Shown: one piece after another, positions 3 to 49,769 of the stretch
How the letters are laid out: each line of letters opens with the position of its first letter
How positions within the stretch are numbered: the stretch's first letter is position 1
Assembly (NCBI GenBank): GCA_032027045.1
Contig: JAVSMU010000001.1
Coordinates: 2,309,112 to 2,373,111, forward strand
DNA length: 64,000 nucleotides
Source of the DNA: Truepera sp.
GTDB taxonomy: Bacteria > Deinococcota > Deinococci > Deinococcales > Trueperaceae
Reading direction: 5' to 3'
Made by a program: the position numbers and the translations under genes
Notes under the pieces: model-generated
Told to the model about the DNA's origin: nothing
What the model saw: only the letters and a program-made list of their open reading frames with translations
Databases searched by the model: none

Positions 3-398
3 ATGTCCTACCTCATGCGAGTCGTATCCCCGGAAGACCTGGTTGCGCGCTACAAATCGCAGGGCATCAGGTTCACAATGGGGTATCCTGCTATCGGACT
101 CGCCGCCTTTGGACAGGTTGGGTTAATCGCGCTTCAGATTGTCGCAGCAATACTATTCGTTGCAGTCGCCGTATTATTGCTCCGTAGCGTGCGTGCCGCT
201 CGAGTCTTGCTGGCGGTTGTCGGTTACAAACTCCTCTTCGAGCTGAACGGGGTGTTCGGCATGGGGAATCTTCATGAGCTGTTGACCCTCAAGACTGCAC
301 TCTACGTAGCGCTTGCGTTTGTCGTTGCTCCACTCACCATTGGGGCACGCGATTTAGCGCGATTCACCAAAGCAACGACCAAGAAATCGCTAATCTAG
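3..398 (+). CDS. small integral membrane protein, function unknown (could be truncated by the window edge)
   Basis: 131-aa ORF with about three hydrophobic helices (e.g. AIGLAAFGQVGLIALQIVAAILFVAVAVLLL). It lies in the lower-GC first 2 kb. No catalytic motif recognised. Confidence 0.4.
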   Translation: MSYLMRVVSPEDLVARYKSQGIRFTMGYPAIGLAAFGQVGLIALQIVAAILFVAVAVLLLRSVRAARVLLAVVGYKLLFELNGVFGMGNLHELLTLKTALYVALAFVVAPLTIGARDLARFTKATTKKSLI

Positions 399-420: not shown

Positions 421-1995
421 GTGATGCGAGGGGCCAAGGCGGTATCAAGGCACCTTATTAGATATCTGCTCTTTGGCTGTCTTACAGCGGTTGGTTTCTG
501 GAGCGCCGCAAGTTTCCTGCTGAATTACTACGCCCTTTCTGGATCCCCACAGCGGGTCAAAGAGATCTCTATCGGTTTCGGTGGAGTGACGCATCTGCTT
601 AAAGGCGCGGTCGGTGCCACTCGTACTTGGCAAGTAGAAAAGCCAGCCGAAGCCACCATTTCTTTCGCTGCGAGGCTTGACGAACAGACGGCTGCTCCGC
701 GCTGGGAACTCGCACCAAGTATCGAGTCTCCTGCTGGTACCGCAAGAAAGCTTGCTTTGAGCCCCGATGGTAAGTTGATGCTGGAGGGTCCTTCAAACGA
801 GGTTGCCCGATACTTGATCGTTCTTGGTGCGCCGCTGGCAGGTCGCCATTTCCGAGCAAGCTTCGACGTTGAACCCGGGGGAGACGACACGCCAGTTGTC
901 GGTACCGTTGCTCTCAGCTCACAGGACGGCCGCGACAAAAGCAGTACCAACTTCCGTGTCACAGAAGCCGAAGCCCTCGTTTCAACCTGGAGTGCGCCGC
1001 CAAACCTGGATGGTTACGTATTGGTCGTGACGCTCAGCAATCTCGGTGGATATGGCTCCATCGGCTCACCGGCAATACAAGAACAGCTGGACGGCAGTTG
1101 GGCTCAACCTACGCTTGCCACCATAGCAATCGACGCACAGGCTCACAAACAGGCCATTGTGGTAGACGGCGAATGGAACGTGTATAGAACGGAAGGCATC
1201 TGGCTGGACGGGAAGCAGCTGTCTGCACGATTGACATTGGGTTCTGGTAACCGAGTCCTCATTCGTGATTTCAATGCGACTGAGACCAAGAGCGACCACG
1301 CACTCCGCATACTGCCAACCAAGTCAAGGGTGTCACTACTGGGAATCCACCCGAACCTACTCGCGCACAGCGTGGTTAGCGTGTTTGGAGCTTTACTCTT
1401 TATCGGGGGCCCGCTTTGGCTAAGCGTCGCCTCTACTGTTCTGGCTTTTGTCGCGCTTGGTATGTTTGGTAGTAGAATCGCACTCATCGCCGCCGCAATT
1501 GCCTTGATGTACTTCGGCACCATTTCTTGGCGAAGACATAAGGTCGCGATATTCTTTTCCCTAGTGTCCATCTCTTTGGTAGCCGTCGTGGCTATCGGAT
1601 TTGCCAGCAGTTTCCAGCGGGAGCCAGAAGTTGGCGTAGTCAGCCGGCCCGAGATCTGGAGGGTCGCATGGCAAGGGTTTACGGCTAACTTCCCTAACGG
1701 TATTCAGACGAGCTTCTCCGATTACTGGGCGGACAAGGCTCCAACCCGCCCACCTATATCCCACGCACACAATTTCTGGCTTCAACTGTCTGTGAAGTAT
1801 GGCCTCCTCGGCCTACTAGGCTCAGTCGCATTGACAGTTGCGCTGGGGATATTCGCATGGCGAAGGTACCGATGGCGAGGTTTGGGGCTCCTTCTACCCC
1901 TCTACCTGTTGAACGTTTTCGATTACTCATTTTCCTTTGTGGGTGTATACGTACCGCTAGCGCTCGCGCTCTGGATCGGTAAGCGAAGGAGTTAG
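421..1995 (+). CDS. O-antigen ligase/polymerase-like (Wzy_C-type) membrane protein with a large N-terminal extracytoplasmic domain
   Basis: 524 aa. It has an N-terminal TM helix, then ~270 aa with no TM segments, then a multi-TM block. The signature loop ISHAHNFWLQLSVKYGLLGLLG resembles the Wzy_C motif also seen in the next gene ([22 protein letters not shown]). Confidence 0.6.
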   Translation: MMRGAKAVSRHLIRYLLFGCLTAVGFWSAASFLLNYYALSGSPQRVKEISIGFGGVTHLLKGAVGATRTWQVEKPAEATISFAARLDEQTAAPRWELAPSIESPAGTARKLALSPDGKLMLEGPSNEVARYLIVLGAPLAGRHFRASFDVEPGGDDTPVVGTVALSSQDGRDKSSTNFRVTEAEALVSTWSAPPNLDGYVLVVTLSNLGGYGSIGSPAIQEQLDGSWAQPTLATIAIDAQAHKQAIVVDGEWNVYRTEGIWLDGKQLSARLTLGSGNRVLIRDFNATETKSDHALRILPTKSRVSLLGIHPNLLAHSVVSVFGALLFIGGPLWLSVASTVLAFVALGMFGSRIALIAAAIALMYFGTISWRRHKVAIFFSLVSISLVAVVAIGFASSFQREPEVGVVSRPEIWRVAWQGFTANFPNGIQTSFSDYWADKAPTRPPISHAHNFWLQLSVKYGLLGLLGSVALTVALGIFAWRRYRWRGLGLLLPLYLLNVFDYSFSFVGVYVPLALALWIGKRRS

Positions 1996-2109: not shown

Positions 2110-5100
2110 GTGATGGCCGCGACGACCCCCAACTTCCGCCGTGGACTCGCCTTCATGGCAGGCCTTGGCATCGCAGCTATCCCGACCGTAGGCCCCTTCC
2201 TCGCCGTCCTCACGCTCTTCGCGGGCCGGTTAGCGTTCCAGCGTGCAGACCTCTGGTGGTGGGTCTCGGCGGCTTTGCTTAGCCTCCCCTTCCTGCTCAC
2301 CGGCCACCCTTGGGACTCACTCCTCACGGTGGCACAAGTACTGGGGGTTTGGCTCATTTTCCGCTCGGCGACGGAGTTCCGCCACAGCGCCAAGAGCAGG
2401 ACCATATCGGAGGACATCGGGGCCGGCTTGGTGGTCGGGCTTGCCATCACCTTGGCCCTTGGGCTGAGGCAGCTTGGGGGCTTCCGTTTTGACGTCGCCA
2501 AGACGGCGCTGGACGCCATAACGTGGAATACGCACCCGGCCGTGTTCGGCCACGCCATCCTGATCTTGGCAGCTTCACTCGCGGTAATAGTGCCATCTCC
2601 ACGACTTCGGGTGCTGGCCCTCGCCATCGGTGCGGTGGGCGTCGTAATTTCGGGTGCGCGCGAGGCCGTCTGGGCTTGGTTGATCATCGCGCTTGGCCTC
2701 CAGTTCGCCGGCAGGCGAGCGCAACGCGGGACCAAGGTGGTGGAGTGGGCGCTCATCGTCACGATGACCTTGCTCGTCACTGGCGTAGCAACTCACTTGG
2801 GTCTGGGCCGTACGGGGTTCCTCACAGCCTACGTACCCGAACTCGACAACCCGAACCTGTTCCGCGGCACGGAGGTGGCCAAAGGCGACTGGTGGTTCCC
2901 CCTAGGCGTCACCTTCGGTAGCCATGAAGAGTTCGTCGACGGCGAGACCCGTTCGGTAATCGACGTGACCAAGACGTCCCCCGAGCCATGGTCGAGGCTC
3001 CAGCAGGCTGTCATCCTTGCTCCGGGCGAGGCCTACACGCTTTCGGCGCTGCTGCGACCATCTCCAGGAGCCACCCCTGGGTTCGACAGCTGGGGACAGG
3101 ACAACAATACGGCCTCCACGGTCACTCTTGGCACGGTCCTGGACGGCGGCACACACCGCGTCACCAGCAGCACGGGGATGAAAGTGATATCCACCGGCGC
3201 CGAGGTCTTGGAAGCAGATTGGGCCAGGGCAAGCGTCACCTTCGAGTATCTGGGCGACCGGCCACTGACCTGGTACGTGGGCGTCGTGCCTGACCGCTCC
3301 AACCTCCTAGGGGTCACCTCGAGCTTCGCGGAGTTGCAGTTGGTTCAGTCGTATTCCGTCATGCCGTACCGGCCGGGTGCGGCCGTTCGAGGTGTCACCG
3401 ATGTTAGGCAATCTCGGTTTCCCATCTGGCGCGACGCTCTCGAAGCGATCCGCTCGAAGCCCATCCTGGGCTGGGGTCCTGAAGGTTTCCCGAAGGCCGT
3501 CCACAGCGCACTCGCCGGCCAGATCCTGCTAAGGCCCGTAGCCGCCCACGCACACAACGCGTTCCTTGCGGTCTGGGTGGACCGTGGCCTAGTCGGCTTG
3601 ATCGGGCTGCTCGGCCTCTTCGGCTTGTTGTTCCTTAGGGCCATCCAGCAACGCGACAGAGGTGCACTCGTGATCCTGGCGGGCATGATCGTGCTCAACC
3701 TCTTCGACTTCACGGTGTTCTCGGGTTCGGTCATATACCCCCTTGCCGCCGTGCTGGGTTGGCGAGCGGCCGGGCACCGGCGCACCGCCGACCATGAGGC
3801 CGGGTCGGGTGGCAACCTCTTCACTCGCATGGGCCTGGCAGCTGCGGATTGGGCCGTGGCAGTTTCGGCGTTCGCCATCGCGTACTTGGCATTGTCAGCC
3901 GCCACGTCGCCCGCTCAACCGGCGAGCAACGACCCGTTCAACGTTCTCTACCTCGCGCTCCTTTGGCCCCTCGCCAACGCTCTCAGTGGCCAGTACCCCG
4001 CTTATGGCCGTCCCAGCTCGGCGGAGTTGCAGTGGAGCGTCGTTGGAGCCGGCGCTGCCGGAATCACGGCTCTCCTGATCGGCGCGGCCTTCCCGGGTCA
4101 GGTACACGTGCCCCTTTCCGTCATTTTTCTCGCCACCGGCATAACCATCATCCTCAGCCCCCTCGGGCGAGGCCTCGCCAAACGAACCCTGTATGCCCTT
4201 CGCATCTGGGGAAGGCCAGTGGTCGTCTTTGGCCATAGGGGGTCCGCCGACGAACTCACCGAGTCCTTGTTGGCCCAACCGCTCCTGGGCCTGCGGCCGG
4301 TTGGACTGGTCGATGCGGATCCAGCCGCATCAATGCCGGCCTCGCTGCGAGCCATAGCCTGGCGTGAACTCTCGCCGGCAGTCGAGCGGCTCTCCAATCA
4401 CTGCATCGTGCAGCCGGGGCAGCAGAACTCGACCATCGTTCAGGCGGTATTGACGTCCGCTGGCCGGAACACCTTCCGCGACATCCAGGTCGTCCCCGAT
4501 TTGCACGACATCCCGAGCTCGGACGTGATCGCTAAACCCCTAGGCAGGTCCCTAAGCCTTCAGGTGCGGAACAACCTCGCATCTCCGGCCAATCGGGCAT
4601 TCAAACGCGGGTTCGACCTGCTCCTAGTGGTGCTAGGGGGGCTCGTGGCGATACCGGTTCTTGTGCTCCTTGCTCTGGCGATTCGGCTCGACTCGAAGGG
4701 ACCCGTCTATTTCAAGCAGCGCAGGATAGGCCGTGACGGGGTGCCCTTCTACGTCTGGAAGTTCCGCAGCATGGTCGCCGACGCACCGGAGCGCCTCGCC
4801 TCACTGCTCGAGAACGACCCGGAGGCACGCCGAGAGTGGGAGGCCACTCAGAAGTTGGTAGATGATCCACGCGTCACGCGCGTGGGGAAGCTGCTCAGGA
4901 AGACGAGCCTGGACGAGCTTCCGCAACTTTGGAACGTCCTCCGTGGAGAGATGAGCCTGGTGGGTCCGCGGCCGATCGTCGACGAGGAGATCGCGAAGTA
5001 CGGTGAGCATTTTCGGTACTACATACAGGTGAGGCCAGGCATGACGGGCGTGTGGCAAGTCTCAGGGAGGTCCGACACCTCATACGACTTCCGCGTTTCT

Positions 5101-5199
5101 CTAGACACCTACTACGTCCGGAACTGGAGCGCCTGGCTCGACATCGATATCCTCGTAAAGACCTTGGCGGTGGTTCTAAAACGCGACGGCGCCTACTAA
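2110..5199 (+). CDS. fusion protein: O-antigen ligase/polymerase-like (Wzy_C) module + WbaP-like polyprenyl-phosphate glycosyl-1-phosphate transferase
   Basis: Uninterrupted 1029-codon frame. The N-terminal half is multi-TM with [25 protein letters not shown]...[23 protein letters not shown]. The C-terminal 455 aa has a TM bundle, a [13 protein letters not shown] linker domain and a Bac_transf core ([14 protein letters not shown]..., [46 protein letters not shown]). Confidence 0.8.
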
Positions 5200-5221
5200 G
5201 CGTCTCACGGTAAAGTACCCC

Positions 5222-6052
5222 GTGCCCCCCACGCCCCACCAGAACGGCGCCATGCGCGCATTCGGCGCCGTGTCCGCCGTGACGAAGCCGCTCTACTGGC
5301 TGTACGAGCAGAGGCTGCTACGGGCCGTGCGGGCGGCGGAGCATCTGCCCCGGCACATCGGCATCATCATGGACGGTAACCGCCGGTTCGCGCGCGCCGC
5401 GGGGCTAGACGTGAAGGCCGGTCACGACTACGGCGCCGGCAAGGCGCGCGAGGTGCTCGACTGGTGCCTCGAGCTCGGCATCCCGCACGTCACGCTGTGG
5501 GGGTTCAGCACCGAGAACCGCTCCCGTACCATCGAGGAGGTGAGCCACCTCCACCACCTGTTCGCGGAGCAGGCGAGGAGCCTCCTCAACGACGAGCGGC
5601 TGCACGCGAACCACGTGCGCGTGCGCGTCATCGGCGATATCGCCGACTTCCCGGACGAGGCCAAGGCCGCCCTATCCGAGATGGAGGAAGCCACCCGCGA
5701 CTACGACGGCATGCACGTGAACGTGGCCCTGGGTTACGGCGGACGCGAGGAGATCGTCGACGCGGTCAAGCGTCTGGCCGCCGAGGAGGCCGGCCAAGGA
5801 CTGACGCTCGAGGGCCTGGCGGAGTCGCTGACGGCCGAGCAGATCACGCGCCACCTCTACACGGCCGGCCTGCCCGATCCCGACTTCGTCATCCGCACCT
5901 CGGGCGAGGTCCGCCTGTCGGGCTTCCTCTTGTGGCAGACGGCATACAGCGAGTTCTACTTCTGCGACGCCAACTGGCCCGAGTTCCGCAAGGTCGACTT
6001 CCTCCGCGCGGTGAGGTCGTTCCAGGCACGCGAGCGTCGCTTCGGCAAGTGA
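5222..6052 (+). CDS. uppS: isoprenyl transferase / undecaprenyl-diphosphate synthase
   Basis: HIGIIMDGNRRFA motif, ...TLWGFSTENRSR..., IRTSGEVRLSGFLLWQTAYSEFYF and a C-terminal RERRFGK. GTG start lies 6 nt after a TAAAGT box. An alternative ATG is at 5252. Confidence 0.9.
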   Translation: MPPTPHQNGAMRAFGAVSAVTKPLYWLYEQRLLRAVRAAEHLPRHIGIIMDGNRRFARAAGLDVKAGHDYGAGKAREVLDWCLELGIPHVTLWGFSTENRSRTIEEVSHLHHLFAEQARSLLNDERLHANHVRVRVIGDIADFPDEAKAALSEMEEATRDYDGMHVNVALGYGGREEIVDAVKRLAAEEAGQGLTLEGLAESLTAEQITRHLYTAGLPDPDFVIRTSGEVRLSGFLLWQTAYSEFYFCDANWPEFRKVDFLRAVRSFQARERRFGK

Positions 6053-6066
6053 GTCAGGGGGACCGG

Positions 6067-7146
6067 GTGAGCGAAACACCCTTCGTTGCAGTCATCATGG
6101 CCGGCGGCCAGGGCCAGCGGTTCTGGCCGCTCTCGACGGCCGCGCGGCCGAAGCAGTTCCTCGACCTGAGCCATAAGGGACGCACCCTGTTGCAGGCAAC
6201 GTACGACCGGGTGCTGCCGCTGGCCGGAAGCCCAAGCCGCGTCTTGGTAGCCACCGCCGAGCGCTACGTACCGCTGGTGCGTGAGCAACTACCCGAGGTG
6301 CCCGTAGGTAACCTGCTGATCGAGCCCACCCCGCGCGACTCGGGCCCGGCCATCGCCTACGCCTGCCTGAGCATCGAGGACCGCTTCGGCGACGTGGTGG
6401 CGGGGTTCTTCTCCTCCGACCACGAGATTGGCGACGCCGCGGCGTTCCACGCCGTGGCCAAGACGGCGGCGGAGTTGGCGGACGCCAGGCGTGCCCTGGT
6501 GACGATCGGCATCACCCCCACGCGGGCGGCCACGGGGTACGGCTACATCGAGGTGGGTGAGTCCGTCGGCGGGGGGAACCGGGTGGTTCGTTTCGTCGAG
6601 AAGCCCAACCTGCGCACGGCCCAGGCGTACGTCAAGGGCGGCCGCCACCTGTGGAACGCCGGCATCTTCGTCTGGCGCGTCGGCGCCGTGCTGGCCGAAC
6701 TCGACGCGCACGATCCTGAGCTGATGGTCCCGCTGAGGAGCGCCTTCAGCGGCGGACGGGTGGTCGAGGTCTTCCCGACGCTCAAGAAGATCAGCATCGA
6801 CTTCGCTCTCATGGAGCGAACCGACAAGGCGGTGGTCGTGCCCGGCGACTTCGCGTGGGACGACATCGGCGACTGGGTGGCGCTCGAGCGCCTGCTAGTT
6901 CCCGAGGACGGCCCCGGCGGCGCCAACACGGTGGTCGGGCGGCACGTCGGGCTCGACACCTCGCGCAACATCGTCTACACCGACGACCCCGACGACGTGA
7001 TCGTCACCCTGGGCGTTCACGACTTGGTGATCGTCAAGCGCGGCAACGCCGTCCTGCTGGTGCACAAGGACAGGGTCCAGGAACTGAAGACGCTCCTCGC
7101 CGACGAGCGCCTCGCGGAGCTCATCGGTGCCGGCGAGGAGACTTGA
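6067..7146 (+). CDS. mannose-1-phosphate guanylyltransferase (nucleotidyl transferase family)
   Basis: Begins VSETPFVAVIMAGGQGQRFWPLS (G-rich NTP-transferase loop), with later GYGYIE and FVEKP motifs. The track ORF 5464..7146 is over-extended into uppS. GTG 6067 follows GGGGGA. Confidence 0.8.
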   Translation: MSETPFVAVIMAGGQGQRFWPLSTAARPKQFLDLSHKGRTLLQATYDRVLPLAGSPSRVLVATAERYVPLVREQLPEVPVGNLLIEPTPRDSGPAIAYACLSIEDRFGDVVAGFFSSDHEIGDAAAFHAVAKTAAELADARRALVTIGITPTRAATGYGYIEVGESVGGGNRVVRFVEKPNLRTAQAYVKGGRHLWNAGIFVWRVGAVLAELDAHDPELMVPLRSAFSGGRVVEVFPTLKKISIDFALMERTDKAVVVPGDFAWDDIGDWVALERLLVPEDGPGGANTVVGRHVGLDTSRNIVYTDDPDDVIVTLGVHDLVIVKRGNAVLLVHKDRVQELKTLLADERLAELIGAGEET

Positions 7147-7225
7147 GGCCTGCGCGGAGTCCTGGGGCTGGCGCGAGGGCCTTGAACGGCCAGTAATACG
7201 CCCTACAAACCCCCGCGCCCAAGCG

Positions 7226-8794
7226 CTAGAACAGGTCGCCCACCGTAACGGGCGCCTGCGGCTCGACGTACGCCGTGTCCATCTGCGCCAACTGCAGCTT
7301 GCCAGACACGTCGTCGTTCACGCCGTGCCAGTAGGTGTAGCTCTCTATCACCCACATGCCGCTCTCGCGCGTGCCGTTGCCGCTCGCCTTCACGCCGCCG
7401 AACGGCATGTGCGCCTCGGCGCCGTTGGTGGTGTTGTTGATGCTGGTCATGCCCGCTTCGATGTTGTCCTTGAAGGCGAAGGCGAACTCGCGGTCGTTCG
7501 TGTAGATGGCGCTCGAGAGGCCGTAGTCCACGGCGTTGGCGACCTCGATGGCCTCGTCGATGCCGTCGACCTTCACGAGGTTGATGGTGGGCCCGAAGAT
7601 CTCTTCCTGGAACAGCTTCATGCCCGGCTTCACGCCCTCCCACACGGTGGGCCAGCCGAAGATGCCGGTGTTGGGGTCGCCCACGAAGCCGGCCGGCTTG
7701 GAGTCGTCGGTGATGCGCCCCTTGCCGTACAGGAGCGTGGCCCCGTCGGCCTTGCCCCACTCGTACTGCTGCTGCCAGCGCTGGAAGAAGCGCTCGTTGA
7801 TGAAGGGCCCGTAAAGCACGTCCTCGGTCTTGAGGGGATCTCCGATGCGGATGCCCTCGACGGCGGCGAGGAACCGCTTCTTGAACTCGTCGTAGATGGG
7901 AGCGTCGACGATCAGGTTCCCGGCGCTCGTGCAGCGTTGCCCGCCCGTGGCGTAGGCCGAGAAGATGGCGCCCTGAACGGCGTTGTCCAGGTCGGCGTCG
8001 CGCATGATCACCAGTGGGTTCTTGCCACCCAGCTCGAGGGTGGGGCGTTGGAGGTTACGGCCGGCGACCTCGCCCACGTAGCGCCCGACGGCGCTGGAAC
8101 CGGTGAAGGCCAGCTTGTCGACCAAGCCGTCGTCCATCAGCTCGATCATGTACTGCCCGGCCGCGTCCTTGCCGCCGCCGAAAACCACGTTGAACACGCC
8201 CGCGGGAAGGCCCGCGCCCTGCACGATCTTGGCCAGGGCGTAAGCGCAGGCCGGCACGTCCTCGGACGGCTTCCAGACGATGGTGTTGCCCGTGACCAGG
8301 GCCGGGATGATCTTCCAGCTCGGCACCGCGATCGGGAAGTTGCCGGCGGTGACGATGCCCACGACGCCCAGCGGGCGCCGGTAGGTGGTGAGGTCCTTGT
8401 TGGGCATCTCGCTCGGAACGGTCTGACCGTACAGGCGCCGGCCCTCGCTCTGGAAGAAGGAGCACGTGTCTATGGCCTCCTGGACGTCGCCGCGGGCCTC
8501 CTTGAGCGTCTTGCCCATCTCGCGCGTGATGAGGTGAGAAAGCGACTCCTTCTCGCGCTCTATAGCCTGGCCGATGAGGCCGATGATCTGGCCGCGGATG
8601 GGGGCGGGCGTCTTGGCCCACGACTTCGCGGCGGCCTTGGCGGCCCGGGCCGCCTCCTGCACCTGCTCCTTGGTGGCCTCGTAGAAGCTGCCGAGGAGGT
8701 CACTCGTGTTGCTGGAGTTGCGGCTCTCGAAGGTGCGCGTGCCCGTTACCTCGCGCCCTCCGTACAAGTGTGGGTAGGTCTTCTTGCTGCTCAT
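7226..8794 (-). CDS. NAD(P)-dependent aldehyde dehydrogenase family protein
   Basis: ALDH motifs are present: LELGGKNP (catalytic Glu), GGQRCTS (catalytic Cys), FTGSSAVG and EEIFGP. Start trimmed to MSSKKTYPHLYGG (ATG 8794), which lies 7 nt after a TGTAAT box. Confidence 0.85.
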   Translation of the reverse strand: MSSKKTYPHLYGGREVTGTRTFESRNSSNTSDLLGSFYEATKEQVQEAARAAKAAAKSWAKTPAPIRGQIIGLIGQAIEREKESLSHLITREMGKTLKEARGDVQEAIDTCSFFQSEGRRLYGQTVPSEMPNKDLTTYRRPLGVVGIVTAGNFPIAVPSWKIIPALVTGNTIVWKPSEDVPACAYALAKIVQGAGLPAGVFNVVFGGGKDAAGQYMIELMDDGLVDKLAFTGSSAVGRYVGEVAGRNLQRPTLELGGKNPLVIMRDADLDNAVQGAIFSAYATGGQRCTSAGNLIVDAPIYDEFKKRFLAAVEGIRIGDPLKTEDVLYGPFINERFFQRWQQQYEWGKADGATLLYGKGRITDDSKPAGFVGDPNTGIFGWPTVWEGVKPGMKLFQEEIFGPTINLVKVDGIDEAIEVANAVDYGLSSAIYTNDREFAFAFKDNIEAGMTSINNTTNGAEAHMPFGGVKASGNGTRESGMWVIESYTYWHGVNDDVSGKLQLAQMDTAYVEPQAPVTVGDLF

Positions 8795-8861
8795 GAGGTC
8801 ATTACAACACGGGGCCCGCGGCTTCCGGCTTGCGCCCCATACCCCACTAAGGTGCCCGGCG

Positions 8862-9659
8862 CTAACGGCCCTCTTTCCGCAAGAACCAGACGTGCTCACT
8901 GGGCCAGGACGCGGCCCACTCGCCCGAGACAAAGAACCGCGTCTCGCTCACACCATGCGCGGGCCGCGGCTCCTTGAAGCCCTCGACGACGAAACCCGTG
9001 CTCAGGAAAAGCTCGATCCAGGCCTCGAACGTGAGGTTGAACTCGATCCCGCCGGGGTCCTGAGCCGCGTCCGACCAGTCGAAGCAGTGGGCCCCGAAGT
9101 ACGGCCGCTGCAGCTCGCGCACCAGTGCGCTTCCATCGAGCGGCGTGAAGGCCGGCACGAACGGATGGTTGCCGAGGAACCGCAGCAGTCCCCCGGGCTT
9201 GAGGATGCGGTGCGCCTCGGGAAGCCAGACGTACGGGTCGCACCAGATGGCGGCGCCGTACTCGCTGATCGCGAAGTCGAAGGCCGCGTCGGGGAAAGGC
9301 GTCGCCTCGGCGCTCCCCAGCACGAACTCGGTCTCGGCGCCGTGGGCCGCCGCCAGCCTGCGGGCGGTCGCGAGTTGCTCCTCGGAGATGTCGATGCCCG
9401 TCACGGAGGCCCCGAGGCGCGCCATCCAGCCGGACACGTAACCGGTGCCGCAGCCTAGTTCCACGGCGCGCACGCCACCCATGTCGGCCGGCAACAGGCC
9501 AAGGTCGCTGTTGGCAACCGACCAGATGCCCCAGTAAGGCTCGGGGGCGCTCCAGGCGCGCTCGCCCGCCGCCACCCAGTCGGGGGCCCGGTCGTTCCAG
9601 TAGGCGCGGTTCGCCATCACGTGGCCGCCGGTAAGTTCGTCGGTATCGGCAGAGGTCAT
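8862..9659 (-). CDS. class I SAM-dependent methyltransferase
   Basis: Motif I VELGCGTGYVSGWMARLGASVTGIDISEEQL. 265 aa. ATG lies 6 nt after a CATAAT box. Confidence 0.8.
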   Translation of the reverse strand: MTSADTDELTGGHVMANRAYWNDRAPDWVAAGERAWSAPEPYWGIWSVANSDLGLLPADMGGVRAVELGCGTGYVSGWMARLGASVTGIDISEEQLATARRLAAAHGAETEFVLGSAEATPFPDAAFDFAISEYGAAIWCDPYVWLPEAHRILKPGGLLRFLGNHPFVPAFTPLDGSALVRELQRPYFGAHCFDWSDAAQDPGGIEFNLTFEAWIELFLSTGFVVEGFKEPRPAHGVSETRFFVSGEWAASWPSEHVWFLRKEGR

Positions 9660-9705: not shown

Positions 9706-10424
<719 letters not shown>

Positions 10425-10425
<1 letters not shown>

Positions 10426-11399
10426 TGGCGGCCGTTGCCGCCCCTGCCGACCAGGCCACCCCCCGCCCCAAGCACCTTCTCGACTTCGCCGACTGGTCGG
10501 CGCTTCACATCATGGGCCTGTTGAACACGGCGGACGTCATGGCGCAGGTCCTCACCCGCACCATCAAGAAGGTCCCGGCGCTGCAGGGCTTCACGGTCGC
10601 CACGCTCTTCTTCGAGGACAGCACCCGCACGCGCCTCAGCTTCGAGCGCGCCGCGCGGGCCCAGAGCGCCGACCTGATCGGGTTCGCGGCGGGGGGCTCG
10701 TCGCTGAAGAAGGGCGAGAGCCTGCACGACACGCTGCGCACCGTCGACCGCCTGCTCGTCGACCTCTACGTCGTCAGGCACCCGGTCAGCGGCGTGCCTT
10801 ACCAACTGGCGCGCTGGACGGACGCCGCCATCGTCAACGCCGGCGACGGTCGGCGCGCCCACCCCACGCAGGCGCTGCTCGACGCGTACACGTTTCGGGC
10901 ACACTTCGGTGTTGCCGAGGGCGGTCTTCCCTTCGCCGGCAAGCGCCTCACCATCGTCGGCGACATCGATCACTCGCGCGTGGCGCGCTCCAACATCGAG
11001 CTCTTCACCAAGCTCGGGGGCGAGGTCACCCTGTGCGGACCCTCCACCCTGGTCCCGAACGAGTTCGCCGACCTTCCGGGCGTTCGCCTCGCCTCGCGGC
11101 TCGAGGAGGCGGTCGAGGAGGCCCACGCCGTCATGGCGCTGCGGCTCCAGCAGGAGCGCATGACCGCTGGCCTGCTCCCGTCGCGCAGCGAGTACGTCGC
11201 CCGCTACCAGATCACGGAGAAGACGATGCAACACGCCCACCCCGACGCCATCCTCATGCACCCGGGCCCCATCGTCCGCGACCTAGAGGTCGCCAGCGAC
11301 CTGGCTGACGGCCCCCGCAGCGTCATCGAGGAGCAGGTCGCCAACGGCGTGCCGGTGCGCATGGCGGTCCTCTACTCGCTGCTGGTGGGCCGCCAGTGA
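10425..11399 (+). CDS. pyrB: aspartate carbamoyltransferase catalytic subunit
   Basis: FFEDSTRTRLSFE, HPTQALLD and HPGP motifs. The ATG overlaps the pyrR stop (TGATG). Confidence 0.9.
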
Positions 11400-12685: not shown

Positions 12686-12810
12686 CCCAGAGCCTGGGTC
12701 AACGCTGGAGCCCTGGGAAAGAGCCTGGTTTTCGAGCCGGCGCCATAGGCCCAAACCCAGTCGGGCTGGGCAAGTGATGGGGATTTCTCCCCCCTACTGT
12801 CGGTAATGCC

Positions 12811-12816
12811 TACAAT
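12811..12816 (+). promoter_or_regulatory. -10 box (TACAAT) positioned for a leaderless transcript
   Basis: TACAAT ends 7 nt before ATG 12823. No Shine-Dalgarno lies between them. Confidence 0.5.
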
Positions 12817-12822
12817 GTGACC

Positions 12823-13647: not shown

Positions 13648-13669
13648 CCGGGCTTAACGGCCTTCAAGC

Positions 13670-14260
13670 TCACAAGGTGCGCAACAGGGCCGGCAGGTCC
13701 TCACCCAGTTGCACCACCGCATCCTGACCGTAGATGTAGCGCAAGAAGCCCTGGCGGTCCACCACCGCCACCACGTCCGTGTGCGCCACGCTCGAACCGG
13801 CACCCGAGTAGCCCACGAAGAAAGCGCGCGCGGCCGCGGCCACCTGCGAGTTCGAGCCGCTGAGACCGACGAAGGCGGGGTTGTAACGCCCGAGGTACTC
13901 GGCCAACACCGCAGGCGTGTCGAAACCGGGGTCGACCGTCACCATCACGACGTCGAGGTCAGGCGGTGCGCCGGCCAGCTCGTACGCCCGTGCCAGGCGG
14001 GCCATCGTCAACGGGCACACGTCGGGGCAGCGCGTATAACCGAAGAAGACCAGCGTCACGGAGCCGCGGAAGTCCGCTGCCAGATCCACGGGCCTACCCG
14101 CAGTGTCCACCAGGTCGTAGCCCGAGACCTTCACCGGGTTCTTCAGTTCCGTGCCCGCCACCGCCGTCCGCGAGCTCAGGCGTGCTCCGAGCCAGAAAGC
14201 GGCGGAGCCCAACACTACCAGGGCCGCCAAACCCCAAACGAACTTCACGGCACCCTTCAT
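13670..14260 (-). CDS. SCO1/SenC family copper chaperone (thioredoxin fold)
   Basis: Begins MKGAVKFVWGLAALVVLGSAAF (signal/anchor) and carries a CPDVCP motif. Start trimmed to ATG 14260, which lies 8 nt after a TATAGT box. Confidence 0.85.
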   Translation of the reverse strand: MKGAVKFVWGLAALVVLGSAAFWLGARLSSRTAVAGTELKNPVKVSGYDLVDTAGRPVDLAADFRGSVTLVFFGYTRCPDVCPLTMARLARAYELAGAPPDLDVVMVTVDPGFDTPAVLAEYLGRYNPAFVGLSGSNSQVAAAARAFFVGYSGAGSSVAHTDVVAVVDRQGFLRYIYGQDAVVQLGEDLPALLRTL

Positions 14261-16735: not shown

Positions 16736-18880
<2,145 letters not shown>

Positions 18881-45120: not shown

Positions 45121-47070
45121 CTACGACCCCGCGTCTTCGCCCACGGCGTCCCGCGGCGCACTCAGGGCCGCCAGGAACTTCTCGCCGTAGCGCTCCAGCT
45201 TCACCGCCCCGACGCCCGCGACGTTGCCCAACTCGCTTAGCGTCCGTGGCGCCACCGCAACCATCTCGCGCAGCGTCTTGTCGTGGAACACCACGTAGGG
45301 CGGCACGCCCTGGTCCTTGGCGATCTGGAGGCGCAGCGCCCGTAGCGCCTGGAACAGCTCCTCTTCCTCCGGGCCGGCCTCGGGTCGGTCGGGCCCAGGC
45401 GCGGTGATGGAGCGCAACTTCCGCGCCGTCGGGCGTTCCCGCAGCCGGTCGCGCCTCAGCTCGACGGAGCTCTCGCCACGCAGGACAGCCGCCGCTCCCG
45501 GACCCACCACCAGGCCCCCGAAGCCGTCCGGGTCGGGTAGCAACTGGCCGTTGGCGAGCAGTTGCCTGACGACGGAGCGCCACCCGCGGTCGTCCAGTTC
45601 GGTGCCGATGCCGAACGTGCTGAGCTGGTCGTGCCGGAGTGCCCTTACCCGCTCCGTGTCCTTCCCGAGCAGGACGTCTATGAGCTGCCCGGCGCCGAAC
45701 CGCTGGCCCGTGCGCATGACCGTGGAGAGGAGTTTCTGCGCCGCGACGGTGCCGTCGAACGTCTCGACGGGCTCGCGGCAGGTGTCGCAGTGGCCGCAGG
45801 GCTCCTCCAGGCGCTCCCCGAAGTAGCCCAGCAACGCCTGGCGGCGGCAACCCGGCGTCTCGCAGTAGGCCAGGAGGGCCTCCAGGCGCTGGCGTTCCAC
45901 GCGCTTGAAGGCCTCGCTGCCGTTGCCTTGGGCCAGCATGCGGCTCACCTGCACCACGTCCTGCAGCCCGTAGGTCATGAAGGCGTCGGACGGCTCGCCG
46001 TCGCGGCCGGCGCGGCCCGTCTCCTGGTAGTAGCCCTCGAGGCTCTTGGGCAGGTCGAGGTGGGCCACGAAGCGCACGTCGGGCTTGTCGATGCCCATGC
46101 CGAACGCGATGGTGGCCACCACCACGACGCCGTCCTCGCGTAGGAAACGCTCCTGATGCCGTTGCCGCACCTCGCTGGAAAGGCCCGCGTGATACGGGAC
46201 GGCGTTCACGCCCTGAGCAACCAGCCAGGCAGCGGTGGCATCTACGCTCTTGCGGGAGAGGCAGTACACGATGCCCGCATGGCCCACGTGCTTGGCGCGG
46301 TAGAAGGCGAGGAACTGCCGGCGCGCGTCGACCTTCTCGACCACCTGGTAGTCGATGTTGGGCCGGTCGAAGCTGGAGACGAAGCGCCGCGCATCCTCCA
46401 GGTGGAGCTTGTCGACGATCTCGCGGCGGGTGGCCGCGTCGGCCGTGGCGGTGAGCGCGACCCGCGGCACTCCCGGGTAGCGCTCGGCGAGCACCCCCAG
46501 CCCGATGTACTCGGGCCGGAAGTCGTGCCCCCACGCCGACACGCAGTGCGCCTCGTCGATGGCGAAGAGGCTGAGCGGCAGCCGGTCGAGCAACGACAGG
46601 AACCCCGGGGTCAGGAGGCGCTCGGGCGCCACGTAGATGAGGTCGATGCGGCCTTCGGCCAGGTCGCGCTCCACCTGCCGCGCCTCCGCCGGCTCGAGGC
46701 TCGAGTTGAGGTACGCCGCGCTGACGCCGGCCAGCCTGAGGGCCCCGACCTGATCGTGCATCAGGGCGATGAGAGGCGAGACGACCACGCCCACGCCGGG
46801 CCGCAGCAGCGCCGGGATCTGGTAGCAGAGCGACTTGCCGCCGCCCGTGGGCATGAGGACGAGGGCGTCGCCACCACCAAGCACGTGTTCGATGACCCGG
46901 CCCTGAGCGCCGCGGAAGTCGGGGTATCCGAAGACCTCGCTCAGCAGGCGCCGGGCGTCCGAGAGCGTGGCCGCGTCGGGTGGCGTGGGCGCGTCAGGTG
47001 ACGTCTGCGCCTCGGGTGGCGTCCGGCCTTCCCCGGCCCGAGCGTTGCCCGCTTGGCTCAGTCCACCCAC
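45121..47070 (-). CDS. recQ: ATP-dependent DNA helicase RecQ (single HRDC domain)
   Basis: [41 protein letters not shown], a Zn-finger CxxC region, and the C-terminal [33 protein letters not shown]. The GTG start overlaps the upstream gene end by 13 nt. Confidence 0.88.
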
Positions 47071-48296
47071 TCTCCCTTGCGCAGCAGGGGCACGAGCCCG
47101 CCCCCTGCCAACTCACCGGTCACGTCCACTTCGGGCGAGCCGATCATGAAGTCGACGTGCGTCAGCGAGTCGTTGAGGCCGTGCTCCAGCTTCTCGGCGT
47201 CGGTCATCTCCTGCGCGCCGCTCACGCAGTTCGTGTAGCCCCGTCCCAGCGCGATGTGGCAGGCGGCGTTCTCGTCGAACAGCGTCTCCAAGAACAGCAC
47301 GCCGGTCTTGGCGATGGGGCTCGAGGTGGGCACCAACGCCACCTCGCCCAGCCGGCGGGCGCCCGCGTCGGTGCCCAGGATCTCGTCTAGAGCCGCCTGG
47401 CCCTTGCCGGCGACGGCCTCGACGACCTCGCCGCCTTTGAACTCGAGCGAGAAGTCGTCGATCAGGATGCCGTTGTATGCCAGCGGCATGGTGGCGCGGA
47501 CCGTGCCGTCGACCCTGGCGCGGTGCGGGGCCGTGAAGACTTCCTCGGTCGGCATGTTGGCCACGAACTCGACGCCGTTCGGCAGCGTCGAACTCCCACC
47601 GTCCCACAGGTGATCGTCCGCCAGGCCGACCCGCAGGTCGGTGCCCGGACCCTCGAAGCGGAGCGCGGCGAAGCGCTGGTCGTTGAGGAGCCGCTTGCGC
47701 CGGCTCAGGCCCTCGTTGTGGGCGCGCCACGCCGCAACGGGGTCGGGCTCGGTGACGCGGGTGGCGGTGAAGATGGCCTCCCACAACGCGGCGACGGCCT
47801 CGTCCTCGGGCAGCTGCGGGAACACCTTCCGCGCCCAGGCCGGAGCGGAGGCCGCTGCCACGCACCAGGCTATGCGGTCGGACATGGCCAGGTCGGAGTA
47901 GGGCCTGGTGGCGGGCCGCCAGGCGCGCTGGAAGGCGGCGAAGCGTTCGGGCTCGGTGCCCGCCAGGGCGTCGGGGTCGTCGGCCAGGATGGCCAGGGAG
48001 GCGGCGCCCTCGGCGCCAAGCGCGTTCATGGCGTCTGCCCGGTACTGCGGGATGATGCCGAAGCTACCCTCGGGCCCATGCAGGAAGCGGGCGCGGGTGA
48101 CGACGTCGTCGGACCACAGGACCTCGACGTAGGGACTTCCGATGCGGTAAGCGGTCTCGACTACCCTGCGAACGAGCGGCGCGGCGTCGATGCCGGCGCG
48201 CACGATCAGCTTCTGGCCCGGCTGCACGTTCACCCCGACGCGGACGAGTAGCTCGGCGTACGACTGCAAACGTTCATCGAAAGTGGGTGTGCTCAT
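47058..48296 (-). CDS. aminopeptidase, M29 family (AmpS/PepS-like)
   Basis: [30 protein letters not shown]... and C-terminal HIALGRGY...THVDFMIGS. The track ORF to 49172 is over-extended across the riboswitch. ATG 48305 is an alternative start. Confidence 0.85.
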
Positions 48297-48403
48297 GGCG
48301 TGCATCGTAGCAACCGACGCCCGTGATGCGTGGCCGAACCAGGCCACGACCAAGGGAGGTTTATCATGGGTCCGGGTGGCGCGGACGCGCCCCTCACAAC
48401 TGA

Positions 48404-48546
48404 ACCCCTTCAGGGCAGGGTGAGATTCCCTACCGGCGGTGAATGGCGCGGCACGTGACCGACGCCACAGCCCGCGAAGCCCACCAAGGTGGGCCCGAAC
48501 CGGTGAGATCCCGGTGCCGACGGTGACAGTCCGGATGAGAGAAGGA
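48404..48546 (+). promoter_or_regulatory. FMN riboswitch (RFN element)
   Basis: CUUCAGGGCAGGGUGAGAUUCCCUACCGGCGGUGA...AGCCCGCGAAGC...CCGGUGAGAUCCCGGUGCCGACGGUGACAGUCCGGAUGAGAGAAGG matches the RFN consensus blocks. It lies directly upstream of ribD. Confidence 0.9.
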
Positions 48547-48584
48547 GGTGAAGCGACGGCCGCGAGACTGCGGTCGCGGCTTCC

Positions 48585-49769
48585 ATGGAACCGCAAACGA
48601 CAGACCCCGAAACAACCGAGCAGGGCCGGCTGGACGCCCAGTTCATGGACCTGGCCCTGGCGCTCGCCGAACGCGGTCGCGGGCGCGTGAGCCCCAACCC
48701 ACTGGTCGGCTGCGTGATCGTGCAAGGCGGCAACGTCGTGGGCGAGGGTTGGCATGCCCGCGCCGGGGAGCCGCACGCCGAGCTGGTGGCCCTCCGCAAG
48801 GCTGAGCAGGCCGCGGCCGGCTCGACCTGCTACGTGACCCTGGAACCGTGCGACCACCAAGGCCGCACCCCACCATGCACCGAGGCGCTGCTCGCCGCTG
48901 GGGTGGCGCGCGTCGTGGTGGCCACCACCGACCCGAACCCGTTGGTCAACGGCAAGGGCGTGCGGCGCTTGCGAGAGGCCGGCATCGCCGTGGAAGTCGG
49001 CGTCAGGCAACGGCAAGCGGAGACCCAGAACGAGGTCTTCCGCACGAACCACCTTCAAGGGCGGCCGTTCGTGCTCTACAAGACGGCCATGTCGCTCGAC
49101 GGCAAGATCGCCGTGCGCACGGGCCGCTCGCGCTGGATAACGGGGCCGTCGGCCCGGGCGCGCGTGCATCACTGGCGCGACGAGTACGACGCGGTCGCCG
49201 TGGGCATGAACACGCTACTCCTCGACGACCCCGCCCTCACGACGCGCATCCCGGGTGGCCGGACGCCCACGAAGGTCGTGTTCGACAGCCTGGCGCGCAC
49301 GCCCGTGACCGCCCGGCTCTTCGCGCCCTCCGCGGACGGCATGCCCGCGCGCGTCATCGTGGTGGTCACGGACGACGCGCCCGCCGCGCGTAAGCAGGCG
49401 CTGGCGGCCGCCGGCGCGGAGATCGTCTCGCTGCCCGCCAAGAACGGACGCCCGCCGGTGCCGGCGGCGCTAGCGGCGCTCCTCGCCCTGGGCATCACCA
49501 GCATCATGTTGGAAGGCGGCGGTTCGATCGCTTGGGAGTTCTTCAGCGCCAACGCCGTCGACCGCGTCGCCTGGTTCGTGGCGCCGAAGCTGCTGGGCGG
49601 CTCGGCCGCCGGACCGCTGGGCGGCTTGGGCGTCGCCAGCATCGCCGACGCCTACACCCTCACCGACGTGCTGGTCGAGACCATCGGTCCCGACCTGCTC
49701 ATCAGCGGCAAGGTCGCCACGCCGGCGGCCCAGGCGAGCACGGGCGCCGGCGACGAGACGGGGGCCTGA
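48585..49769 (+). CDS. ribD: bifunctional diaminohydroxyphosphoribosylaminopyrimidine deaminase / 5-amino-6-(5-phosphoribosylamino)uracil reductase
   Basis: PNPLVGCVIV, HAELVAL, TLEPCDHQGRTPPC and a C-terminal reductase domain. Confidence 0.9.
   Translation: MEPQTTDPETTEQGRLDAQFMDLALALAERGRGRVSPNPLVGCVIVQGGNVVGEGWHARAGEPHAELVALRKAEQAAAGSTCYVTLEPCDHQGRTPPCTEALLAAGVARVVVATTDPNPLVNGKGVRRLREAGIAVEVGVRQRQAETQNEVFRTNHLQGRPFVLYKTAMSLDGKIAVRTGRSRWITGPSARARVHHWRDEYDAVAVGMNTLLLDDPALTTRIPGGRTPTKVVFDSLARTPVTARLFAPSADGMPARVIVVVTDDAPAARKQALAAAGAEIVSLPAKNGRPPVPAALAALLALGITSIMLEGGGSIAWEFFSANAVDRVAWFVAPKLLGGSAAGPLGGLGVASIADAYTLTDVLVETIGPDLLISGKVATPAAQASTGAGDETGA

Follow-up and report, generated by a model that had tools for sequence, protein, structure and literature searches.

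The stretch of DNA analysed here (64,000 nucleotides, hereafter the window) carries a gene that raises the question of whether the first and a late step of one Und-P-dependent glycan pathway can reside on a single polypeptide and, if so, what such a protein would do. In every characterised Wzx/Wzy pathway that we know of, the transferase that starts the chain is a protein distinct from the Wzy_C-type enzymes (polymerase, ligase and O-OTase). That these enzymes work together in one complex is a long-standing hypothesis, which has proved hard to test.

The sequence-only reading of this region had described one uninterrupted 1029-codon frame joining two modules, and this description holds. Specifically, the ORF at 2110..5199 (+) contains no internal stop across its 1029 codons, and all the motifs quoted for it were recovered (aa 478-500, aa 703-715 and aa 935-955), the junction peptide corresponding to aa 553-575, that is nt 3766-3834. 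As judged from sequence, translation probably begins at the ATG at 2113, since a 100% identical database protein (P0001) is 1028 aa long. The parts of the protein and the evidence for each assignment are the following:

2110..5199 (+), whole fusion ORF, 1029 aa with a GTG start; stop codon at 5197-5199
2110..2799 (+), first membrane block of the N module, aa 1-230, with about 8 predicted TM helices (AlphaFold models, hydropathy, invariant residues)
2842..3384 (+), predicted beta-sandwich insert splitting the Wzy_C domain, aa ~245-425 (pLDDT ~90-96; Foldseek; NF048003)
3385..3774 (+), Wzy_C catalytic loop and last three TM helices, aa 426-555, ending in the cytoplasm (Pfam Wzy_C at aa 431-500; invariant residues)
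3415-3417 (+), R436, invariant
3547-3555 (+), H480-A-H482, H480 being invariant
3775..3834 (+), inter-module linker, aa 556-575 (low pLDDT; breakpoint of PGT-cassette exchange)
3835..4203 (+), WbaP-type four-helix TM bundle, aa 576-698 (start of TIGR03022 at aa 576; model helices)
4204..4575 (+), cytosolic nucleotide-binding accessory domain typical of Lg-PGTs, with an alpha/beta fold (DUF / CoA_binding_3-like), aa 699-822 (secondary structure, PF13727 in homologues, alignment to WbaP chains)
4576..5196 (+), predicted re-entrant helix and monotopic PGT catalytic domain, aa 823-1029 (Bac_transf; WbaP and PglC in the PDB; invariant residues)
4912-4917 (+), Asp-Glu dyad D935-E936 (invariant residues)

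A long frame of this kind might arise if two neighbouring genes were merged by a sequencing or assembly error, through a stop lost or a frameshift introduced at around 3766-3834, and to this explanation, in favour of which nothing was found, we attach a negligible probability. The same continuous frame was found in at least 230 independent protein clusters from many assemblies, with the junction residues W551, R552 and R573 invariant in 62 sequences, and, whichever PGT cassette is present, the in-frame junction lies at the same point. Also against a merger of two genes is M574, the sole Met close to the junction, which is not conserved. An assembly or frameshift artefact is therefore ruled out by hundreds of independent fused homologues, and the absence of a stop codon from the junction, which had been claimed for this single sequence, extends to the whole group. 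An internal restart at M574, giving a separate PGT, was rejected as well: the consensus residue at this position is Leu, and no Shine-Dalgarno-like sequence was found upstream of M574.

The fusion clusters, defined at 90% identity, are 32-73% identical, and every named one belongs to Trueperaceae or Deinococcota. One protein search returned 117 full-length fused homologues, and about 120 more were found in a second clade, the sequences deriving from independent assemblies deposited in NCBI, JGI, ENA and Logan. When orthologues were compared for fused versus split genes, the fusion proved to be conserved: apart from broken copies, namely the frameshifted P0118, the truncated P0119 and the chimeric P0120, the search with the full-length protein returned no non-fused relatives. 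The N module by itself does have standalone paralogues. A scan of genome contigs with the single fusion protein returned two true relatives, both from Trueperaceae, together with two unrelated PGT matches. Databases name the fusion 'WbaP' or 'EPS polyprenyl glycosylphosphotransferase', and public pipelines list both Pfam domains. A full-text literature search, which did not cover the main surveys of PGT fusions, returned no published description of a Wzy_C-Bac_transf fusion. The earlier proposal that the architecture is undescribed thus survives in part: it was not found in the literature searched, but it is common in one lineage and its two Pfam domains are already listed, even if the name given is 'WbaP' only. 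We regard the architecture as undescribed rather than unseen, 'never described' being more than is proven. The plain 'WbaP' label is a misnaming that hides half of the protein.

On the C-terminal side, the NCBIfam model TIGR03022 (WbaP_sugtrans) matches aa 576-1029 from end to end (model positions 1-456; 458.9 bits, cut-off 403), Pfam Bac_transf (PF02397) matches aa 832-1024 over its full profile (220.9 bits against a cut-off of 27), and the solved WbaP structures match the module with 274 bits. The Asp-Glu dyad D935-E936, contained in SLDELPQL, is invariant in 62 homologues and is aligned to the same motif of the WbaP chains. In the AlphaFold model, helices 566-596, 609-625, 636-660 and 669-696 make up a four-helix bundle, an alpha/beta domain is found at aa 702-794, and a single long helix (aa 826-861, with P847) is predicted where the re-entrant helix is expected, in a region that aligns to PglC and WbaP. 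Of the three profiles suggested earlier as a check, Wzy_C and Bac_transf were detected above their curated thresholds, but CoA_binding_3 (PF13727) gave no match in the fusion protein at E<=0.01 with Pfam; PF13727 is present in many homologues of the protein. In conclusion, these data show that the C module is a complete WbaP-type large monotopic phosphoglycosyl transferase (Lg-PGT), in agreement with the full WbaP-like enzyme first proposed for this half.

Assignment of the N-terminal half relies on a combination of profile, fold and conserved residues. Pfam Wzy_C (PF04932) matches aa 431-500 with 47.1 bits (cut-off 31.7), over the C-terminal half of the profile only (positions 79-148), and the domain is split by an insert; insert-less relatives match profile positions 2-148. 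When searched as sequence against PDB chains, the N module gave no match even at E<=10, and WaaL was found by fold comparison only. The AlphaFold model of the N module alone (pLDDT 88.4, pTM 0.86) matched chain 7tpg_B in Foldseek with probability 1.0, E 8.4e-4 and TMt 0.48, and a comparable result was obtained with the full model (probability 1.0, E 6e-4, TMt 0.54). Across 64 sequences, with identity down to 32%, no substitution occurs at R436 or H480, and at least 90% keep H482; we take R436 and H480 to be the counterparts of R288 and H337 of E. coli WaaL. In the first membrane block, W81, G106, H148, G182, E185 and W190 are invariant in both clades. The models show, as a prediction, a WaaL/Wzy_C fold with an Arg/His loop and a glycan-binding-type insert facing the periplasm. 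With Wzy_C above its cut-off, the WaaL fold and the R436/H480(-H482) signature, the assignment of residues ~1-560 to a multi-TM Wzy_C-type module is well founded. Its earlier label as 'ligase/polymerase-type' agrees with this fold and can be taken no further, since fold and motifs do not separate ligase from polymerase: the WaaL fold is common to ligases, Wzy polymerases and O-OTases, and Pfam Wzy_C takes in polymerases as well as ligases. In addition, the module fails the equivalog cut-offs of both the WaaL/RfaL ligase model (NF012031, 12.4 bits versus 277) and the PglL/TfpM O-OTase model (NF058641, 19-35 bits versus 600), the latter being the best family-specific match.

The insert, about 180 residues long and located within the periplasmic loop of the Wzy_C module, was absent from the earlier description of that module. 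Its predicted fold is that of CBM4/16/22 modules and of phage tail-fibre / GTA head-spike-fibre domains, with Foldseek E values from 1e-4 to 8e-6 in the PDB and as low as 3e-7 in BFVD. The model NF048003 (GTA_spike_fiber) gives 21.7-22.3 bits on the insert of the window, below the cut-off of 36, and 45-61 bits, above it, on homologous inserts. Eight residues of the insert are invariant (N249, E255, W261, W262, K288, R296, Q298 and Q299), and a variable patch at aa ~316-360 differs between alleles. A variant of the fusion lacking the insert exists (827-877 aa), and therefore the beta-sandwich is not essential. We consider the insert a putative glycan-binding beta-sandwich.

According to hydropathy and the model, a loop of charge +5 ahead of TM8 is followed by a 255-residue loop, three helices and the linker, whose residues 556-565 have pLDDT <50. 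Hydropathy gives 8 or 9 TM helices ahead of the large loop, a difference that bears on the side of the protein N-terminus and not on the parity at the junction. The models show the C-terminus of the N module returning, as predicted, to the cytoplasm, exactly where WbaP begins. WbaP has an N-in topology and a cytosolic DUF (PMC10312794), and the topology of the N module fits the fusion because its C-terminus is cytoplasmic. Alignment of the standalone Wzy_C paralogue (421..1995) covers aa 435-559, and the paralogue stops exactly at the junction. The pTM of the full model is 0.67, compared to 0.86 for the N module alone, and the relative packing of the modules is accordingly uncertain.

The fusion gene closes a variable locus of serotype-like character, the surroundings of which are organised as follows:

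3..398 (+), 3' part of a multi-TM DUF6418 gene of the low-GC variable locus, truncated by the left end of the window
421..1995 (+), second, standalone Wzy_C protein ('type B'), 524 aa, GC 55%, candidate partner (polymerase or ligase) in the same pathway
5199..5200 (no strand), right-hand boundary of the variable polysaccharide locus, with 99.5% identity to L005 from the first base after the stop
5222..6052 (+), uppS (undecaprenyl-diphosphate synthase), start probably at 5252, conserved downstream neighbour
6085..7146 (+), manC (mannose-1-phosphate guanylyltransferase), conserved second downstream neighbour

The fused gene is 54% identical between two genomes with 99.5%-identical flanks. The possibility that it is a conserved housekeeping gene of the flank was discarded, since the 99.5% identity with L005 begins only after its stop. 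The uppS-manC pair follows the fusion in the window and in L002, L005 and L009; no terminator-like site was found between the fusion gene and uppS, and the promoter/terminator scan gave nothing above shuffled expectation. In the window, the GC content of the type-B gene is 55% versus 64% for the fusion gene, and between the window and L002 the fusions are 74% identical, while the type-B proteins align over 82 aa only. At least one further Wzy_C gene was found in all 6 loci examined, and a multi-TM gene belonging to no recognised polymerase or flippase family in 5 of the 6: this is DUF6418 in the window and a Pfam-less gene in L002, L008, L009 and L011, the Pfam-less proteins having about 8-12 TM helices. 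Related loci encode GT4 and WecG glycosyltransferases, epimerases, a pyruvyl transferase and a Wzx flippase. A search with the standalone paralogue P0174 returned only P0174 itself and one Meiothermus protein; in a Meiothermus locus, a type-B-like Wzy_C protein lies beside a PF14296 Wzy polymerase and a pgl-like small PGT.

By comparing the two halves of the fusion, it appears that they have not evolved together. The correlation between pairwise identities in the N half and those in the C half is only r=0.33. The C-module identities are bimodal, with two deep PGT types that share 40% identity on average, and both types occur within N-module clusters at ~60% identity. For 11 of the 62 sequences, the closest relative by N module has a PGT of the other type; N modules joined to differing PGT types are up to 80-81% identical, and in discordant pairs identity drops at aa 556-571, i.e. 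at the linker. Rate differences alone are a disfavoured explanation, given the bimodal C identities, the sharp break at the linker and the presence of both types within N clusters. Sequence comparison thus indicates that PGT cassettes are exchanged at the linker while the fusion is kept, the halves having different histories, because the identity break falls exactly at the linker and near-identical N modules carry two PGT types. Such exchange, which apparently never separates the modules, argues for selection for the fusion itself, that is for a selective advantage of the covalent link; the linker also suggests a splice point for engineering glycan pathways.

As for function, we favour, with a confidence that is about evenly balanced, a bifunctional inner-membrane enzyme which would perform both initiation and a late periplasmic transfer of the Und-PP-linked glycan, of the ligase/O-OTase type rather than polymerisation. 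In a Wzx/Wzy-type synthesis of surface polysaccharide, the C module at the cytoplasmic leaflet would convert UDP-hexose and Und-P into Und-PP-hexose, the sugar being probably Gal, as family membership suggests. The N module, on the outer face, would transfer the flipped, finished glycan from Und-PP to an acceptor with release of Und-PP, and polymerisation would fall to one of the other, fast-evolving Wzy_C genes or Pfam-less multi-TM genes in the locus. The fusion would in this way tie the maker of the Und-PP-sugar bond to its breaker. Both activities may thereby be expressed 1:1 and sit together near the scarce carrier Und-P, with uppS immediately downstream. They would also always be inherited jointly although the locus is swapped between strains, which would matter because a PGT without the late steps sequesters Und-P. 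Deinococcota have, to our knowledge, been reported to be without classical lipid A.

The same bifunctional protein could carry, as its N module, a Wzy repeat-unit polymerase, with the type-B Wzy_C protein acting as ligase or O-OTase, and we consider this possible but somewhat doubtful. A polymerase frees one Und-PP per step and one PGT event is needed per repeat unit, so that fusion would couple the two 1:1, an equally good stoichiometric rationale to that given for a ligase; the beta-sandwich would grip the growing chain. The family membership in Wzy_C is compatible with it, as is the position of the fused gene within the strain-variable cassette, which resembles that of wzy genes and is unlike that of a species-conserved ligase, and the same holds for the allelic variation of the insert patch. 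In the Meiothermus locus, where a separate polymerase is present, the type-B-like protein would be ligase- or O-OTase-like, hinting that type B, and not the fused module, could be the ligase. However, conservation of the N module far exceeds that of the other Wzy_C genes in its loci, which diverge much faster, and the module retains its 80-81% identity across switches of PGT type. The additional Wzy_C gene in six of six loci, and the family-less multi-TM gene in five of them, were likewise counted for the ligase type, and the Pfam-less proteins could themselves be the polymerase. The sole family-specific matches of the N module, TfpM and RfaL, are an O-OTase and a ligase, both weak and far below cut-off.

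A non-catalytic N module, acting as a periplasmic sensor or anchor that reports product or intermediates and regulates the fused PGT via the TM bundle (a feedback on Und-P use), appears to us very unlikely. In its favour, a regulatory role has been proposed for the accessory domains of Lg-PGTs (PMC10312794), PGTs controlled by partner proteins are known (PMC12802240), and a lectin-type insert is present. Against it, an active enzyme would be expected to keep its Arg/His signature, and this one is invariant across the 64 sequences, even at 32% identity; the N module also has standalone paralogues, and one class does without the insert. A more elaborate proposal we regard as speculative and unlikely, if less so than the sensor: one polypeptide, probably dimeric as WbaP, might form a self-contained 'carrier-lipid loop', with Und-P loaded inside, Und-PP-glycan unloaded outside and the carrier returned locally, the lectin domain and TM bundle signalling the outside reaction to the PGT and the conserved linker serving as a natural splice point for PGT specificity cassettes. 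If true, this would be a modular, recombination-ready design for serotype switching, not described for any Und-P pathway.

A natural and strongly conserved fusion provides 'Rosetta-stone' evidence that both steps belong together physically, and it offers a single stable polypeptide for cryo-EM and for the biochemistry of Und-P sharing and recycling. Compared with known systems, the C module (aa 576-1029) resembles WbaP of Salmonella enterica and E. coli (PDB 8T53, 9S7S) from end to end (Foldseek E 1e-18), with the 4-TM bundle, accessory domain, a predicted re-entrant helix and the Asp-Glu catalytic domain in common. Characterised WbaP is, however, a standalone protein of ~476 aa with a free cytoplasmic N-terminus, whereas in the fusion this terminus continues from a 555-residue Wzy_C module. 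The N module shares the polytopic fold of WaaL (Cupriavidus metallidurans, PDB 7TPG) and the Wzy_C family (Wzy, PglL/TfpM), with a TM-score on the target of 0.48-0.54. Common to them is also a large periplasmic loop that bears a conserved Arg and a His-x-His/HN motif and precedes three TM helices; the N module differs in the ~180-residue beta-sandwich placed mid-domain and in the fusion to a PGT. The insert has the same predicted beta-sandwich fold as CBM4/16/22 modules and phage tail-fibre / RcGTA head-spike-fibre domains (NF048003), but it sits in the periplasmic loop of a membrane enzyme rather than forming part of a glycosidase or virion fibre.

The closest precedent in principle is that of the Bi-PGTs, in which a monoPGT catalytic domain is fused to another enzyme of the pathway (PMC11257628, PMC10312794). 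Having a monoPGT domain and a second predicted catalytic domain on one chain, the fusion falls within the Bi-PGT definition (PMC11257628), and it follows their principle of linking a monotopic PGT covalently to an enzyme of the same glycoconjugate pathway. In the literature searched, the partners in Bi-PGTs are soluble or cytoplasm-facing acetyltransferases and glycosyltransferases, carried on the bare catalytic core. In contrast, the partner found here is an enzyme of 11-12 TM helices with its predicted active site on the opposite face of the membrane, joined to a complete Lg-PGT, and the fusion would span an early and a late step of the pathway rather than consecutive cytoplasmic ones.

The open reading frame at 2110..5199 (+) comprises 1029 codons without internal stops, as the sequence-only reading had claimed in proposing one uninterrupted frame that fuses an O-antigen ligase/polymerase-type module to an initiating phosphoglycosyl transferase (PGT), and every peptide motif cited there was found in the translated product. 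Since an ATG directly follows the GTG at 2110 and its 100%-identical match in the database has 1028 aa, translation probably starts at 2113. Both proposed modules, hereafter the N module (aa 1-555) and the C module (aa 576-1029), were recovered by profile searches:

aa 431-500: Wzy_C (Pfam, 47.1 bits; second half of the profile only)
aa 576-1029: WbaP_sugtrans, TIGR03022 (NCBIfam, whole profile, 458.9 bits against a cut-off of 403)
aa 832-1024: Bac_transf (Pfam, 220.9 bits)

In addition, solved WbaP chains matched the C half with 274 bits.

The whole-protein search returned 117 full-length homologues (about 1000-1067 aa, 41-73% identity), all carrying both Pfam domains. Seeding another search with a shorter relative added about 120 proteins from a second clade, whose identity to the window protein is 32-40%. 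The assemblies behind these sequences (NCBI, JGI, ENA and Logan) are independent, and some of the contigs measure 2-5.8 Mb; the source, where named, is 'Trueperaceae bacterium' or 'Deinococcota bacterium' in every case; a genome scan matched MAGs of Trueperaceae and 'Truepera radiovictrix'. The three non-fused relatives retrieved by the full-length search are frameshifted, truncated and chimeric gene calls. At the junction (peptide aa 553-575, nt 3766-3834) W551, R552 and R573 are invariant, while M574 is not conserved, so that there is no conserved internal start. Because homologues from independent assemblies carry the same fusion with invariant junction residues, a frameshift or stop masked by an assembly artefact is excluded, and the fusion interpretation as a whole is supported.

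An AlphaFold2 model of the whole protein, built on a 62-sequence alignment (mean pLDDT 81.6, pTM 0.67; 88.4 and 0.86, respectively, for the N module modelled alone), predicts the following architecture:

aa 7-224: about eight TM helices
aa 263-412: 12-strand beta-sandwich (pLDDT about 90-96)
aa 432-467: two periplasmic helices
aa 484-555: three TM helices
aa 556-565: low-confidence linker
aa 566-696: four TM helices
aa 702-794: alpha/beta domain
aa 826-861: long helix where the re-entrant helix is expected
to aa 1024: catalytic domain

Foldseek searches against the PDB matched the C half to WbaP (8T53, E 1e-18) and PglC, and the N half to a single membrane protein, WaaL (7TPG_B, probability 1.0, E 6e-4 to 8e-4, target TM-score 0.48-0.54). 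Active-site residues are conserved in both modules. Specifically, W81, H148, E185, W190, R436, W440, G454, H480, G493 and D516 are invariant in the Wzy_C part across both clades, H482 is kept in at least 90% of the sequences compared, and the PGT shows no variation at D935-E936 or in much of its catalytic core.

The beta-sandwich (nt 2842-3384) is an insert resembling phage spike fibres and carbohydrate-binding modules, located in a loop of the Wzy_C module that faces the periplasm. The Wzy_C domain is split mid-way by it, and relatives without it (827-877 aa) give a continuous Wzy_C profile match. Foldseek matched it to CBM4/16/22/27 modules, phage tail fibres and tailspike modules in the PDB, and to ConA-like lectin folds and phage tail and receptor-binding proteins in BFVD. 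Against NF048003 ('phage head spike fiber domain', NCBIfam) the window insert scored 22 bits, below the cut-off of 36, and homologous inserts of relatives 45-61 bits, above it. Eight of its residues (N249, E255, W261, W262, K288, R296, Q298 and Q299) are invariant in both clades, and a variable patch spans aa ~316-360.

The 11-residue stretch in the loop ahead of the eighth helix carries a charge of +5; therefore, the following 255-residue loop should be periplasmic, as in WaaL, and the chain should return to the cytoplasm through three helices at about aa 555. WbaP itself starts in the cytoplasm, where its accessory and catalytic domains also lie (PMC10312794), and the fusion thus requires no topological rearrangement. 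The standalone Wzy_C paralogue encoded just upstream (421..1995) aligns to aa 435-559 and stops exactly at the junction, indicating that the join is between two complete proteins, end to start. The relatives fall into three classes:

about 1000-1067 aa: fused, with insert
827-877 aa: fused, without insert (e.g. P0333)
520-610 aa: standalone, N-module-like, with insert, in the same kind of locus beside a fused gene (2368..4062 in the related locus L005; also L011)

The locus of P0333 (L008, on a 5.8-Mb contig) holds an insert-less fused gene (10001-12490, 829 aa), with uppS not adjacent to it, a separate standalone PGT of the large WbaP-like class (Lg-PGT; 12760-14226, 488 aa), convergent downstream of it, and a WecG gene. 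Fused and unfused PGTs therefore coexist there.

Pairwise identities in the 62-sequence alignment correlate poorly between aa 1-555 and aa 576-1029 (r=0.33). The C modules form two types of 47 and 14 sequences, plus one outlier (P0117), the window belonging to the rarer; identity between the types averages 40%, and both fall in the WbaP subfamily of NCBIfam. Both occur within N-module clusters defined at about 60% identity, and for 11 of the 62 sequences the closest relative by N module has a PGT of the other type; P0017 and P0070, for instance, share 81% of N-module and 40% of C-module residues. Sliding windows place the break in identity at aa 556-571, that is, in the linker. Between the window and the conspecific L005, N-module segments are 61-70% identical, and the PGT 28% in the TM bundle, 38% in the accessory domain and 50% in the catalytic domain. 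The simplest reading of these comparisons is that the PGT cassette has repeatedly been replaced by recombination at the linker, the fusion always being kept, a pattern that points to selection for joining the two modules covalently.

Downstream of the fusion lie uppS and manC and, after them, housekeeping genes (aldehyde dehydrogenase, methyltransferase, pyrB, pyrC and a Crp-family regulator). The fusion-uppS-manC order recurs in three related loci (L002, L005 and L009), and no terminator-like site was found between fusion and uppS. Upstream, GC content falls to 54-57%, against 68% for the whole window; this region contains the 3' end (3-398) of a DUF6418 multi-TM gene and the standalone Wzy_C gene (421-1995, 524 aa, GC 55%), whose counterparts, here termed type B, differ strongly from locus to locus: identity is 26-36%, and at times no more than about 80 aa can be aligned. 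Ahead of the Wzy_C helices, type-B proteins seem to carry a beta-rich soluble region. Related loci encode GT4 and WecG glycosyltransferases, epimerases, a pyruvyl transferase, a Wzx flippase, further Wzy_C proteins and Pfam-less multi-TM proteins of roughly 8-12 helices; the locus is of the Wzx/Wzy polysaccharide type.

From the first base past the fusion stop codon (window 5199/5200; 13232 in L005, a JGI metagenome contig) to at least 15172, the two loci are 99.54% identical, with UppS 100% identical across 266 aligned residues, but the fusion proteins share only 54% identity and, beyond them to the left, the gene contents are unrelated. Thus, the polysaccharide locus behaves as a serotype-like cassette with a sharp right-hand recombination boundary, the fusion gene being its edge.

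The conserved flank also includes a PAS-PAS-PAS-GAF-HD(HD_5) signalling protein (14280-16613, -), neighboured by a CCG/4Fe-4S protein gene (16736-19060, -), neither evidently linked to the fusion. As to gene calls, ORF 5464..7146 (+) corresponds to manC, called with a start too far upstream (the real one is at about 6085), and GC3 and Pfam identify ORF 7127..8977 (+) as a shadow of the aldehyde dehydrogenase gene on the other strand (7226..8932, -). A full-length FMN riboswitch (RF00050, 98.5 bits) lies at 48402-48550 (+), overlapped by a predicted gene (47058..49172, -) whose call is probably partly wrong.

In this pathway context, the C module would load Und-P with a hexose-1-phosphate, likely Gal given the WbaP subfamily match, and the N module would act on the flipped Und-PP-glycan in the periplasm, freeing Und-PP. 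For the N module we tentatively favour a terminal transferase of the ligase or O-OTase type: its conservation far exceeds that of the remaining Wzy_C genes in these loci (between the window and L002 the fusions are 74% identical and type-B proteins align over only 82 aa), it is indifferent to PGT type, candidate polymerases are present elsewhere in the loci, and its sole family-specific matches, very weak, are to the TfpM O-OTase and the RfaL ligase. Against this preference, and in favour of a polymerase, stand the position of the gene within a variable cassette, the variable patch of the insert and the exact 1:1 tie of Und-PP release to initiation that a polymerase would give; moreover, a type-B-like Wzy_C protein shares a Meiothermus locus with a dedicated polymerase (PF14296) and a small, pgl-like PGT, so that type B may itself be the ligase or O-OTase. 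That locus (L012, Meiothermus sp. MAG, GCA_040290125.1, 654-9608) encodes the PF14296 Wzy polymerase, GT4s, the small PGT (198 aa), PglD/PglE/PglF-like proteins and, as final gene, the Wzy_C protein (535 aa); it resembles a cluster for the glycosylation of proteins or lipids, and one whose polymerase is not the Wzy_C protein. Stalled Und-PP intermediates are toxic, and the fusion may for this reason be advantageous by providing equal dosage of both enzymes, their co-localisation around scarce Und-P, with uppS adjacent, and assured co-transfer of the PGT with a late-step enzyme in an often exchanged locus.

Compared with known systems, the C half belongs to the Lg-PGT (WbaP) class and the N half to the Wzy_C/WaaL-fold family, although none of the ligase, O-OTase and polymerase equivalog models assigns the N half. 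Fusion sequences are already public, annotated only as 'exopolysaccharide biosynthesis polyprenyl glycosylphosphotransferase' or 'WbaP' (e.g. MBX3141078.1). The PGT partners in O'Toole et al. 2021 are reportedly sugar-modifying enzymes, glycosyltransferases, regulatory domains and polytopic PGTs; in the full texts searched, no description of a Wzy_C-PGT fusion was found. 'Bi-PGTs' are monotopic PGTs fused to other pathway enzymes, with acetyltransferases and glycosyltransferases as named partners (PMC11257628, PMC10312794). In conclusion, the protein is a lineage-wide, apparently undescribed form of the bifunctional-PGT theme that links both membrane faces; further points of interest are the lectin insert, the cassette exchange at the linker and the coincidence of the cassette edge with the stop codon.
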